Shown: positions 9,150 through 14,065, counted from the first letter of the stretch. The stretch is 64,000 bases of DNA from Candidatus Poribacteria bacterium (GCA_965116925.1 OZ220744.1:4224001-4288000); one strand, 5' to 3'. The notes: generated by a model not told the origin, from the letters alone. Numbers and translations are program-made.

Positions 9150-9418
9150 GAACTCCTGATGAAGACTTTACTGTTGTTGCCCAATTCATCGAGTGTTGGG
9201 AACAGCGTCCATCGGCGATAAATCACCGAACTACAAAGCGTTGGCCATTCAACTTGAGTTAGGGATGATATTTTAACACAAGTTGGTAGGAAGTGTTGAC
9301 ATTTATGTGAGTTATATCCGTAGTTCAAGGTGGGACATCGCTTGACATCGACGGATACCCAAACAGATACACTCCCGATAAGATCGGAATTTCACCATAT
9401 TCAGAGCAAACAGGACAT

Positions 9419-9505
9419 AAAAAAAAGGGGGCATATTCTTCAGATTCCGAAGATATACCCCCAGTTTGTATCAGGATAACAACCACTTTATCCTGATACA
9501 AACTG
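9419..9505 (-). terminator. Long hairpin plus intrinsic terminator of cassette 1
   Basis: CAGTTTGTATCAGGATAA...TTATCCTGATACAAACTG stem, then GGGGGTATAT...ATATGCCCCC and a T-run on the - strand. Homologous region at ~12228-12318. Confidence 0.75.
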
Positions 9506-9757
9506 TTAATCCTTTGATCCTGACTCTGATTGCCCCCCATCAGTCGCATCAGCATCTTTACGCTCACGCTCCCACCGTTCCATCGCCTCTTTTAGACGTT
9601 TTAGATTCTCTTCACACGGCGAACACTCATCTTCTGTTTGCATTTCTACCTGTTTGGGAGTGGGTACACCGGGCAAAGTGTCTGTTGCATACGCGATGAA
9701 CAACCCCACAATTACCAAGAAACAAAACACTACCCACGCTACCATAAACACTTTCAT
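9506..9757 (-). CDS. Small membrane or secreted protein with CxxC (83 aa)
   Basis: Hydrophobic N-terminus and ECSPCE; start overlaps the upstream stop (ATGA); tail DGGQSESGSKD resembles that of 12319..13365. Confidence 0.75.
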   Translation of the reverse strand: MKVFMVAWVVFCFLVIVGLFIAYATDTLPGVPTPKQVEMQTEDECSPCEENLKRLKEAMERWERERKDADATDGGQSESGSKD

Positions 9758-10917
9758 CTGGGAACCTCCTCTTGTTTATGATACTGTTCTATCTGATTGG
9801 CGACTTCTGGATCGTTTTCCCTGAGACGACGAAGCCCCTCTTCAGGGCCATACCGATCCAAAGTAGACATTGCCCGCTCAAACCGCTCTGATGAAAATTG
9901 TTCTTTCAGAGAGGCTTCAAGGCCTTCTACGGTAGGAAGGGCGGTCGGTGCTTTGGGCACATCGGTCAAGTTCGGTGCTCGTGTCGCTGCGGCATCGGTT
10001 TCAGGGTTGGGAATTGCAGGACGGGCTAAAGCATCAGTCGCTGGCGGGGATATACTTGGACCTTTCCCCGTCGTTGCGTCAGAAGGTACTGAAGGATTTT
10101 CCATAACAGACGATAGATCCCACGAAGGGGCGGCAGCCTGTGTTTCAGGGGCATCGACCCCGGCTGTCTCTGCGGCTGCGACAATACTCGCCGCATTTCG
10201 CTGCACGTCGGTCATCCATACCAAAGCGGGGTTATCCTGCATGTATTCCTTCCACCATAGGAAGACTCCATCCCAATCTTCCTGGAACTGTGCAGAATAC
10301 CATGTAGACATAAGATCATCGTTGTTAAGTGCCTCGTATACGTCTATACGTTGGTGTGCCATTGCTACTGGATCTGTTATGTCTACGGGTTCGGCAGCGA
10401 GAAACAATTCCGCTACCTTTAGACGCATCTCCGGCTCATAATCCACGGGCTCCCCGGTAGGAAATAACATACGGTAGCTCTTGTCGTACCCCCGAGGCAC
10501 TGAAAAACCTTTGGACTCCCAAAAGTCAAAATAATTCCGAGTACTGACATTTTTCAGCATTTCAAGGTACTCCGGCGAATCCATGATTTCAAGCATTTTT
10601 TTTTGTTCAGCTGGTGTGAGTACATCTTCAAATACGAATATACCCGCCTTGGAAAGTTGGGCTAATCTCTGTTCTTTAGTCAACAGCTTTTCATCCCGAT
10701 TTGTTTCCCCGTGTGAGGTACGGGGATCTTGGGAAAAAATCTCAGTCTTTCTGTTTTCCATTGTCCCCCCGTTGTTGGAGAAAGTTTTTTTGGAGTTATC
10801 CAGCTGTCCCTTGCCCTGATGCTCCCGGAGAAAAAACCACACACAAACACAAAACCCTATTCCTATCAACACTGCACTACCGCCAAGCATCACTTTTATT
10901 TTTGGCTCTTTTGTCAT
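9754..10917 (-). CDS. Membrane-anchored hypothetical protein with C-terminal EEGLRRLRExDPE motif (cassette 1 partner)
   Basis: N-terminal TM helix and Pro/Ala-rich linker. AGGAG RBS favours ATG 10917 over the ORF-track start at 10971. Confidence 0.85.
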   Translation of the reverse strand: MTKEPKIKVMLGGSAVLIGIGFCVCVWFFLREHQGKGQLDNSKKTFSNNGGTMENRKTEIFSQDPRTSHGETNRDEKLLTKEQRLAQLSKAGIFVFEDVLTPAEQKKMLEIMDSPEYLEMLKNVSTRNYFDFWESKGFSVPRGYDKSYRMLFPTGEPVDYEPEMRLKVAELFLAAEPVDITDPVAMAHQRIDVYEALNNDDLMSTWYSAQFQEDWDGVFLWWKEYMQDNPALVWMTDVQRNAASIVAAAETAGVDAPETQAAAPSWDLSSVMENPSVPSDATTGKGPSISPPATDALARPAIPNPETDAAATRAPNLTDVPKAPTALPTVEGLEASLKEQFSSERFERAMSTLDRYGPEEGLRRLRENDPEVANQIEQYHKQEEVPR

Positions 10918-11081
10918 CGGTATCAATCTCCTGAATGTAAAATTGATGGTGGTAGTAAGATGATTTGTCATGAGTTGGTTTTCTCAATTATTGTTAATCT
11001 GAAAAACAAAAAATCCTCGATTAACCAAAGGATCCCCAACCCATAACCACAGATTGCTTTTCACAATGACTTTGTTGTTCT

Positions 11082-11360
11082 TCAACCCCCACTACCAGGG
11101 CAATCATGGTAGACAGAATAGCCACATTCTTCAGCCGCGGCCCCACACGCTATAAAAGCTATCTGTTGATACCAGGCGCACTTGACCGCATCAAAATGCT
11201 TAGAACCACAGTATTTCCGCGCTTGTTTGAGAGCACCACAACACCACTTTTTTGCTGATACACAATCGCTGACAGCTAGTTGAACAAACATCCCCAAACT
11301 GATTACCAATACTGCAACAACCAACAACGTAACTTTCAACCGTCTTTTTGTTGAAAACAT
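11082..11360 (-). CDS. Secreted 8-Cys peptide precursor (92 aa)
   Basis: GGGAG RBS; signal peptide MFSTKRRLKVTLLVVAVLVISLG...AVS; mature part has 8 Cys. Confidence 0.85.
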   Translation of the reverse strand: MFSTKRRLKVTLLVVAVLVISLGMFVQLAVSDCVSAKKWCCGALKQARKYCGSKHFDAVKCAWYQQIAFIACGAAAEECGYSVYHDCPGSGG

Positions 11361-11391
11361 CGTAAAATCTCCCTGTTACCACCGTTCCGAC

Positions 11392-11443
11392 CGAAAACAA
11401 AAAAAGGGCTGCGTCCTCAAATCGCGCAGCCCCCTTGTTTTCG
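11392..11443 (-). terminator. Leader terminator/attenuator hairpin, cassette 1
   Basis: GGGCTGCG...CGCAGCCC followed by a T-run about 40 nt upstream of the ATG. Same structure at 13846-13896. Confidence 0.7.
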
Positions 11444-11444
11444 A

Positions 11445-13365: not shown

Positions 13366-13379
13366 GATAACCTCCTAAG

Positions 13380-13814
13380 TTAAGCAATTTGGCGGTTACA
13401 CAGACTACCGTCGCACCCATAATGTTCGTAGGAGACGGTGCCATCCCTGTACGTGTCAGTTAATTTTCTCTCACCGCCTGGTTCCCAATATACCTCGTGC
13501 CCGTCATCGAAATAATAGGTCGTTACTTCATAATCCACAAGCTGATCGGTATATTTCTTGCCGGTTACAGTACCATAACATACTTGTATGGCAAGATTCT
13601 TGAGATCTGGAAATATTCTATCGCAACGATACGAATAAGGCTCTATTGTAGTCAACTCTACCACAGTTATTGTTGAAGTAACTGTAGATTGAATCAGAGT
13701 GTGTGGATGAGCTTCAACTTCCTGTGTTTGAAAAACGGCACAGATCTTCAAACCAACTACCAAAAATCCAACAACAAACAACGTGACTTTCAGCCGTCCT
13801 TTTGTTGAAAACAT
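13380..13814 (-). CDS. Secreted protein precursor (144 aa) with the same signal peptide as 11082..11360
   Basis: MFSTKGRLKVTLFVVGFLVVGL...VEA cleavage-like site; Thr/Tyr-rich mature part with 4 Cys. Confidence 0.85.
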   Translation of the reverse strand: MFSTKGRLKVTLFVVGFLVVGLKICAVFQTQEVEAHPHTLIQSTVTSTITVVELTTIEPYSYRCDRIFPDLKNLAIQVCYGTVTGKKYTDQLVDYEVTTYYFDDGHEVYWEPGGERKLTDTYRDGTVSYEHYGCDGSLCNRQIA

Positions 13815-13897
13815 CTGTAAATCTCCCCGTTACCACCGTTCCGACCGAAAACAAAAAAGGGCTGCGTCCTCAAATCGCGCAGCCCCCTTGTTTTCGA

Positions 13898-13926
13898 TTG
13901 AAACCAATGGTATCAAAGGGTATACT
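13898..13926 (+). promoter_or_regulatory. Antisense sigma70-type promoter in the cassette 2 leader
   Basis: TTGAAA-N17-TATACT. Confidence 0.65.
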
Positions 13927-13931
13927 ATGAA

Positions 13932-14027
13932 ACGATTGTTAGGTATCCACCCTAACAATCACGAAGCGATTCGAGTCTATCTCTCGTCTTGCTTCAGGGG
14001 GCTTTGAGCTGGCACTCGGGGCCCCCA
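13932..14027 (+). ncRNA. Candidate three-hairpin antisense sRNA (cassette 2)
   Basis: GATTGTTAGG/CCTAACAATC, GAAGC/GCTTC and GGGGGC/GCCCCC stems. Confidence 0.5.
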
Positions 14028-14036
14028 TCATTGTTT

Positions 14037-14065
14037 ACTCTACACTATTTTCCAAAATTTGTCAA
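14037..14065 (-). promoter_or_regulatory. sigma70-type promoter of cassette 2
   Basis: TTGACA-N17-TAGAGT on the - strand. Confidence 0.65.

Follow-up and report, generated by a model that had tools for sequence, protein, structure and literature searches.

Arrays of polymorphic toxin-immunity cassettes, reportedly catalogued by Zhang, Aravind and co-workers, and small bacteriocins with an adjacent immunity protein are the described systems closest to the locus analysed here. The immunity protein of colicin M, a membrane-anchored periplasmic protein, is an example of the second kind. The locus lies in a stretch of 64,000 nucleotides from Candidatus Poribacteria bacterium (GCA_965116925.1 OZ220744.1:4224001-4288000), referred to below as the window, and consists of two operons on the minus strand, W2 (13814..12319) and W1 (11360..9506). 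Each operon encodes a small protein with a signal peptide (the cargo) followed by a larger membrane protein (the partner), and each is preceded by a structured leader RNA. All features of the locus are on the minus strand, and positions are counted from the first letter of the window.

As in polymorphic toxin-immunity arrays, variable cassettes stand in tandem at a fixed locus, and a conserved N-terminal module, here the signal peptide only, is joined to a variable secreted part. A cognate binder is encoded directly downstream (predicted for the W1 pair, with the gene order conserved), partner genes without a cargo occur, and five cassette sets are found at one locus in five species. Unlike in those arrays, the conserved part of the cargo is a Sec signal peptide together with an untranslated RNA leader and no trafficking domain, and the conserved protein module is on the C-terminus of the partner and not on the effector. 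No toxin domain was recognised in Pfam, NCBIfam, PADLOC or PHROGs, or in PDB for the six-Cys cargo family. No dedicated secretion system (type V, VI, VII or similar) was found between the conserved flanks, the rest of the genome not having been searched. With Sec-dependent bacteriocins and microcins the cargos share small size, secretion, stabilisation by disulfides and a hydrophobic or Gly-rich composition. The adjacent putative protector, with one N-terminal helix and a domain that should face the periplasm, recalls the colicin M immunity protein. The partners are, however, 3-5 times larger than typical bacteriocin immunity proteins and carry a common tag; and unlike in bacteriocin systems the cassettes contain no exporter or modification genes, and the organism is an uncultivated sponge symbiont.

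To define what the two operons share, W1 and W2 were compared at the DNA and protein levels. In a repeat search, 11395-11574 matched 13848-14027 (180 nt, 88% identity) and 11285-11407 matched 13739-13861 (123 nt, 85% identity). These 5′ stretches comprise the leader and the first ~25 codons (MFSTKRRLKVTLLVV / MFSTKGRLKVTLFVV). At the 3′ end 117 nt are shared with 82% identity (9256-9372 and 12064-12180), along with shorter pieces, one of them 23 nt at 100% (9474-9496 and 12288-12310), and the tag codons match over 55 nt with 71% identity (9804-9858 and 12408-12462). When searched by BLAST against the whole 6.47-Mb genome, the second leader copy was recovered with an E value of 1.8e-96 and the second copy of the 3′ block with 8.9e-51 (76% over 275 nt). 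The sequence-only reading of this DNA had described near-identical ends around unrelated cores. Similarity is indeed confined to the leader and signal peptide, the 3′ block and ~57 tag codons, although 82-88% identity is the more exact description. The mature cargos, stated there to be unrelated, show no similarity in BLASTP beyond their first 7 residues (top E 0.15). The partners, described as unrelated bodies with a common C-terminus, align only over 64 C-terminal residues (52% identity, E 2e-12); when profiles of the two partner families (42 and 53 sequences) were aligned, just 57 tag columns matched (probability 99.0%, E 2.3e-18), and the predicted folds of the bodies differ. The cores are not diverged copies of one known family: the partner bodies are unalignable outside the tag and differ in predicted fold, and none of the libraries names them.

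The 3′ conserved block (12064..12343 in W2, 9256..9530 in W1) folds into two hairpins of -47 kcal/mol (z -9.1) and -32.5 kcal/mol (z -3.6), of which the second precedes a U-run. In W2 the terminator with its U-run is at 12227-12267, and a copy of the region upstream of an isomerase gene follows at 12064-12180. In W1 the hairpin is at 9463-9504, the terminator at 9419-9462, and the isomerase-gene upstream region contains an extended -10 promoter-like site at 9270-9299. The hairpin/terminator block noticed earlier is therefore present, and its homology reaches further than was described, starting within the final ~10 codons of genes that differ between the units (...GQSESGSKD* and ...GQSESESKN*). 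The promoter-like motif of the 3′ blocks (9270-9299 and 12078-12107, minus strand) reads TCAACA-18-TAAAAT with TG before the -10 box, and 30-59 nt around it recur at 10 further places in the genome with 80-91% identity.

The proposal of a two-gene unit holds for W2 and is incomplete for W1. Cargo W2 (13380..13814) has 144 aa, with a signal peptide of about residues 1-35 (ending between ...EVEA and HPH) and a beta-rich mature part with 4 Cys; its partner of 348 aa, type I (12319..13365), starts 15 bases later. Cargo W1 (11082..11360) has 92 aa, with a signal peptide and a ~62-aa mature part containing 9 Cys, and is followed by a type II partner of 387 aa (9754..10917). A third gene of W1 (9506..9757) codes for a single-pass membrane protein of 83 aa in which a CSPCE motif is invariant; the ATG of this gene overlaps the stop codon of the partner, and a homologue, as gene or as DNA, lies downstream of 10/12 type II cassettes. 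Signal peptides, topology and disulfides were assigned by eye. A longer reading of the W1 partner would start at 10971. The 405-aa open reading frame (ORF) beginning there is probably unused, since the database twin P0121 has 387 aa and AGGAG precedes 10917, which is most likely the start. Within both units the genes overlap or adjoin closely, each with its own ribosome-binding site. The spacer of ~490 bases between W2 and W1 carries palindromes resembling repetitive extragenic palindromic (REP) sequences. These inverted repeats (I1-I3, 11947..12043) and their partners downstream of the array at 9163-9237 have arms of 24-34 nt that are 79-88% complementary, and they are probably common hairpin repeats of the genome.

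The leader is ~195 nt long and forms four stems, P1-P4, followed by an intrinsic terminator. A covariance model, R1, was built from an alignment (A2) of 31 leader copies, and structure counts were made on 75 distinct copies. The W2 leader (13839..14033) scored 215.2 bits and the W1 leader (11385..11580) 213.9 bits. The W2 leader is directly preceded by the promoter-like site TTGACA-17-TAGAGT (14037..14065), the equivalent TTGACA boxes of which align in leader copies B and D; upstream of W1 is TTTGCA-18-TATAAT (11649..11678), and both sites agree with the consensus at 10/12 positions. By reading of the sequence, the terminator of the W2 leader is GGGGGCUGCG...CGCAGCCC with a U-run (13853..13887), and it is present in the minimum-energy fold; that of W1 is at 11399-11434. 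Across the 75 copies 92.1% of 3084 cells are paired, compared with 38-47% when partners are slid, 21 of 42 pairs have changed on both sides (2-4 when slid) and 0/500 shuffles match the observed values, the counts being taken on a model-fitted alignment, which favours the model. Pairing in the terminator helix (helix 7) reaches 99.2%. In a scan of 8800-14400 Rfam gave no match at gathering scores, the best below threshold being isrD (27.8 bits, threshold 37) and TD-1 (24.7, threshold 64.5). A few keyword searches of the Poribacteria literature for riboswitch, RNA motif or cysteine-rich secreted proteins returned nothing related. The leader is a structured RNA in its own right, with covariation support, outside any Rfam family.

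The invariant 3′ strand of P2 (CUCGAAUCGC) can pair alternatively with the invariant terminator loop GCGAUUYGRG. For this candidate competing helix the paired share is 90% (17-49% with slid partners), and it is the minimum-energy fold of a transcript cut before the 3′ strand of the terminator. It is mostly invariant, with changes on both sides in 3/11 pairs; one pair is GC in 39 copies, GU in 28, AU in 7 and unpaired in 0. In the W1 and W2 leaders, two sequences only, ACCCUUU could pair either with the 5′ strand of the terminator or with the ribosome-binding site AGGGAG. The leader is thus most likely an attenuator-type RNA, which would choose by alternative pairing whether transcription and translation continue. 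Like riboswitch-type and protein- or RNA-controlled attenuators, it is a multi-stem leader directly after a promoter, with a terminator ahead of the ribosome-binding site, a putative competing helix overlapping this terminator, and many copies per genome forming a regulon. It differs from described attenuators in that no Rfam family reaches its threshold, and the genes it would control almost all encode secreted or membrane proteins and not a metabolic pathway.

The distribution of the leader was followed through the class. The genome of the window has five strong copies (155-215 bits), one at 54 bits and one degenerate. Matches were found in 26/151 genomes of the class, with up to 13 copies per genome: 16/18 genomes of the window's genus, 4/9, 3/55 and 2/4 (weak) in three other genera, and none in the remaining 20 genera sampled, so that the leader is nearly restricted to a single Poribacteria genus. 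The genes 3′ of the 75 distinct copies, all from the genus, were labelled by BLASTP against reference bodies from this genome. Tag-bearing partners lie behind 32/75 copies (type I, 15; type II, 13; type III, 4), nearly always after a small signal-peptide ORF, which is missing at L038 and L118. Behind 4/75 copies the membrane partner is of type IV or V and has no tag, 6/75 precede a GMC oxidoreductase (Pfam) with a twin-arginine (TAT) signal, and 4/75 a winged-helix gene of 94-101 aa at 236-404 nt from the leader. The genes behind the other 29/75, mostly with N-terminal hydrophobic segments, encode lipoprotein-like proteins, proteins with cytochrome-c motifs and others. This census shows that the range of the leader exceeds the cassettes and that the cassettes exceed the leader. 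As the leader also serves unrelated genes, conservation of the 5′ end reflects more than a recombination substrate.

Several of these copies have neighbours of their own. A full copy of 155 bits at G000:C1:5131221-5131422 (+) (L024:721-922) directly precedes a 571-aa twin-arginine GMC oxidoreductase, an arrangement seen in five further genomes (L085, L086, L087, L090, L092). The copy at G000:C1:5108816-5109023 (+) (L023:1016-1223) precedes a decayed signal-peptide ORF, and ~400 nt beyond this is a 101-aa winged-helix gene (TrmB/MarR-like, L023:1627-1932). The same pairing of leader and winged-helix gene is present at L039, L053 and L054, and the gene could be a regulator of the leader regulon. 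The 54-bit copy (G000:C1:2775295-2776615 (-), L021:4795-6115) precedes a 143-aa ORF for a secreted protein that is very hydrophobic, Ala/Gly-rich and closed by terminal Cys, accompanied by a 235-aa single-pass membrane protein without the tag; the Ala/Gly-rich product looks like a membrane-active bacteriocin-like peptide with its partner.

Pairing of cargo with partner was examined across the family. Cargo W1 belongs to a family with six invariant Cys at a spacing of 6-10-9-10-6 (alignment A7, 11 sequences), which suggests a helical hairpin stapled by three disulfides. Members of this family precede 11/11 type II partners that have a cargo ORF. Type I partners follow beta-type cargos of 125-160 aa, and type III partners a third kind. 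Cargo divergence is faster than partner divergence: BLAST splits the type I cargos into at least five clusters, yet the type I partners can still be aligned. Between the type I cargo sub-clusters and partner similarity a weak trend is seen (median 104 bits within and 46 between, overlapping). Two signal-peptide types, MF[SA]TKGRLKV... and MS[AV]KERFK..., each occur with more than one partner type. Other cargos associated with the leader include one that is very hydrophobic and Ala/Gly-rich and closed by terminal Cys, and one that is Gly-rich with an SDSDSDSN tail; such compositions presumably resemble those of microcins. Gly-Gly ends are found in 13/31 cargos, for example the 92-aa protein of the window (...CPGSGG), and may be a processing or attachment signal. 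A search of PDB sequence profiles with the six-Cys cargo gave a best E of 0.9. A 328-aa ORF in L132, considered as a cargo fusion, has its signal peptide at residue ~211 and was set aside as upstream read-through of a normal cargo.

Complex prediction was carried out for the W1 pair, using the mature cargo (residues 29-92, 11-row alignment) and the helical domain of the partner (72-260, 42 rows). The interaction prediction score from aligned errors (ipSAE) was 0.90 in three runs, the best of 3 controls being 0.01. The models have 88-91 contacts, of which at least 95% are common to the runs, and a predicted local distance difference test (pLDDT) score of 86-87 for the cargo. The ipSAE mark is reached by 116/157 solved complexes and 2/215 mismatched pairs, counts that hold here only roughly as our own alignments were used. 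No solved relative that could explain the score by memory was found with Foldseek, VIA-align or PDB profiles. The prediction supports a cargo W1 seated in the helical domain of its partner, and so, for one pair and in silico, agrees with the cognate partner suggested by the sequence-only reading. Co-occurrence of the signal-peptide gene with the tag, expected under that reading, extends beyond the window. Among the seven tag ORFs of this genome five have a Cys-containing signal-peptide gene directly upstream and two have no cargo gene (ORF lists read by eye); the 32/75 leader copies above are a second case; and among nine tag loci of other genera, which have no leader, 5/9 have a Cys-containing signal-peptide ORF just upstream. 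In G017, ~11/18 tag genes have an upstream cargo ORF and ~7/18 do not.

The W1 partner is modelled with a membrane helix at 7-35, an all-helical domain at 80-255 (pLDDT >90), a disordered stretch at 255-327 and a four-helix tag at 330-383. In the model of the W2 partner an N-terminal membrane helix is followed by a small beta domain (81-143) with two helices, a linker and the tag. The tag is encoded at 12376..12519 in W2, with helices at residues 291-329, and at 9769..9930 in W1. In both models the membrane helix starts at residue 4-7, and 60-75 disordered residues lead into a C-terminal domain predicted to have 3-4 helices. Given the export signal of the cargo and its invariant disulfide Cys, the domain of the partner that would bind it, and the tag with that domain, should face the periplasm. 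The tag profile matches 7 of 48,280 ORFs in this genome: the W1 and W2 partners, two of type I (2.22 and 2.77 Mb) and three tandem type III (2.83 Mb), the trio having a cargo gene before the first only. This trio belongs to a third, leader-less cassette cluster, G000:C1:2832020-2837785 (+) (L022), with a 103-aa secreted 4-Cys protein, a 255-aa type V membrane protein and a sigma-54 activator gene divergently upstream. Over the class the tag is present in 99/151 genomes at 1-31 copies each (family f1, 20/24; f2, 76/98; f3, 2/10; six further families, 0/18). A library of 1.84 billion representative proteins gave 365 matches, and in all 150 listed the tag is C-terminal. It is the sole part common to the three unrelated partner types I, II and III. 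Like PEP-CTERM, LPXTG and the C-terminal domain of type IX secretion, it is one short C-terminal module on many unrelated extracytoplasmic proteins of one lineage. Unlike them, it is a hydrophilic 3-4-helix bundle without a membrane helix, on carriers already anchored N-terminally; where PEP-CTERM/LPXTG-type signals have a hydrophobic helix and then basic residues, the tag and tail are charged and helical without a hydrophobic stretch.

None of the five window proteins has a Pfam, NCBIfam, PADLOC or PHROGs family at or near threshold, in line with the earlier remark that no named family was recognised for the system. Weak library rows for UBact, TraS, SecE and Biotin_lipoyl_2 (E 0.05-0.13) were regarded as chance matches. 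Homologues number 267 for the W2 partner, none of the 120 listed having a Pfam domain, and 239 for the W1 partner; the relatives of both are unnamed or 'hypothetical', and one is labelled Candidatus Poribacteria. Of 77 other tag-bearing proteins compared with Pfam, only one has a domain that passes the threshold (TPR). The type II partner model compared with known folds gave a best E of 1.2 in Foldseek and a best Z of 5.3 in VIA-align, all its fold matches falling below the chance level of helical models, and its domain had no usable match in the ESM Atlas. For type I, queried as the whole partner model, the best Z of 5.0 covered the membrane helix only. The tag gave a best E of 0.26 against PDB sequence profiles; its match to RbcX-like helices in VIA-align (Z 4.2) is likewise below that chance level.

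The array was compared in five species of the genus. In all five it lies between an ABC permease gene with a TPR gene and a xylose-isomerase-like gene with a Gfo/Idh/MocA-type gene, and these flanking genes are 84-91% identical. The site is conserved, and the number and type of cassettes differ in all five species: I + II in the window genome, III + II in G010, four leaders with I, III, III and V in G009, I + II in G008, and three of type II in G017. In G009 the 3′ end of the ABC permease gene recurs in every spacer between cassettes; in L122 (G009:C1:3618001-3635000) the last ~250 nt of this gene are copied, together with a leader, at 6733-7288 and 11046-11628. The 117 nt at the distal end of the 3′ block in the window are the native upstream region of the isomerase gene, repeated within the array. 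The permease-end copies and the repeated isomerase upstream region indicate that unequal recombination involving the array borders has occurred. Since neighbouring units have unrelated cores, exchange of cassette cores between conserved flanks would be the simplest account. The diversification between conserved ends put forward by the sequence-only reading thus receives indirect backing from the differing cassette sets at one site and from the shuffling of signal-peptide types relative to partner types.

Taken together, we tentatively read the cargo as a bacteriocin-like secreted effector and the partner as its cognate membrane-tethered, neutralising binder of the immunity type, the two co-regulated by the attenuator leader. 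Each operon would be transcribed from its own sigma-70-like promoter, and the transcript would run through the ~195-nt leader, where alternative pairing would decide on continuation. The first gene would give a small, disulfide-stabilised cargo whose Sec-type signal peptide directs its export; the second, a membrane protein anchored by one N-terminal helix, whose periplasmic domain would bind its own cargo and whose long disordered linker would end in the small helical domain common to otherwise unrelated partners. The array would evolve by exchange of cores between the 5′ flank (leader and signal peptide) and the 3′ flank (terminator block). Adjacent cognate binders, orphan binders, fast divergence of cargos and turnover of the locus are consistent with an effector and its neutralising binder, as are cargos that are small, exported and disulfide-rich, very hydrophobic or Gly-rich. 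Several observations weigh against this proposal. Searches with the cargos in Pfam, NCBIfam, PADLOC, PHROGs and PDB profiles returned no family of toxins, bacteriocins or defence proteins, and the cassettes include no outer-membrane export route, lysis or transporter gene. Neither the size of the partners (330-450 aa) nor their conserved C-terminal domain is explained by immunity alone, and the CxxC helper gene beside type II cassettes fits an effector/immunity pair poorly. The leader also precedes ordinary-looking secreted enzymes, such as the 6/75 TAT-signal GMC oxidoreductases, so that the regulon extends beyond conflict genes. Some of the cassettes without a leader lie behind extracytoplasmic function (ECF) sigma genes and would fit envelope signalling equally, and the prediction of binding is limited to one cognate pair (W1).

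A possible but less probable account is that the partner does not protect but acts as a tethered chaperone or delivery adaptor. It would take up its cognate cargo on the periplasmic side, and linker and tag would dock it to one shared envelope machine or wall component, which would export, display or anchor the cargo, much as one sorting domain serves many different passengers. The tag as sole common part of three unrelated partner types, its C-terminal position in all 150 listed of the 365 matches, the 60-75-residue disordered linker ahead of it and its retention in 99/151 genomes all agree with docking, and the 88-91 predicted contacts describe a partner domain that wraps its cargo extensively. 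A CxxC membrane protein with 10/12 type II cassettes is also what would be expected of a dedicated maturation helper for cargos of 6-9 Cys. Partners without a cargo gene are, however, frequent, which is unusual for a dedicated chaperone; types IV and V stand behind the same leader without the tag; no candidate was found for a receptor or machine that would bind the tag; and in fold and PDB profile searches the tag is unlike known sorting domains. A broader and unlikely version would make the leader a new ligand- or factor-sensing attenuator of a Poribacteria secretome regulon that includes the polymorphic cassettes, with the tag docking unrelated binders to one envelope machine; the whole would be a modular system not seen before, by which small disulfide-rich proteins are presented or delivered, the sponge host or rival symbionts being possible targets.

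An envelope signalling pair, in which a secreted ligand or co-sensor and a membrane receptor would feed sigma-factor or other regulatory circuits, is improbable. It was suggested by same-strand ECF-type sigma genes (Pfam) in leader-less loci, directly upstream of cargo and partner in L126 (2242-2871, -), L139 (155-683, +) and L148 (1567-2202, -) and of a lone partner in L145 (100-741, +), and by the sigma-54 activator gene that adjoins locus E of this genome. This sigma linkage is seen in only 4 of ~25 leader-less loci inspected, and hypervariable multi-copy arrays are atypical of sensors. The partner is predicted to expose only ~5-10 residues to the cytoplasm and has no second membrane helix and no known signalling domain; where ECF anti-sigma factors have an N-terminal cytoplasmic domain before the membrane helix, it has none, and no zf-HC2 or RskA family was found. 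L139 also has an HxxxCxxC ORF, recognised by eye. That there is no functional unit, a mobile promoter-leader-signal-peptide module having spread before unrelated genes with the adjoining membrane proteins a coincidence, is highly improbable: the leader does precede many kinds of genes, with no tag partner following 43/75 copies, but the gene order is kept whether or not a locus has the leader, the class of the cargo follows that of the partner, the genes overlap or adjoin closely with their own ribosome-binding sites, and the W1 complex is strongly predicted.

Poribacteria are uncultivated, dominant symbionts of sponges, and to our knowledge little has been described of their competition and host communication. 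The analysis describes lineage-specific, multi-copy cassettes of a secreted protein and a binder that turn over between species, with three unnamed partner families, several cargo families and a conserved C-terminal domain, and a new structured leader RNA that connects these cassettes with further exported proteins. Should the leader sense a signal, it would be a new class of regulatory RNA with a clear regulon. If the cargos are antimicrobial or directed at the host, the cassettes would be a new source of small disulfide-rich effectors with built-in cognate binders.

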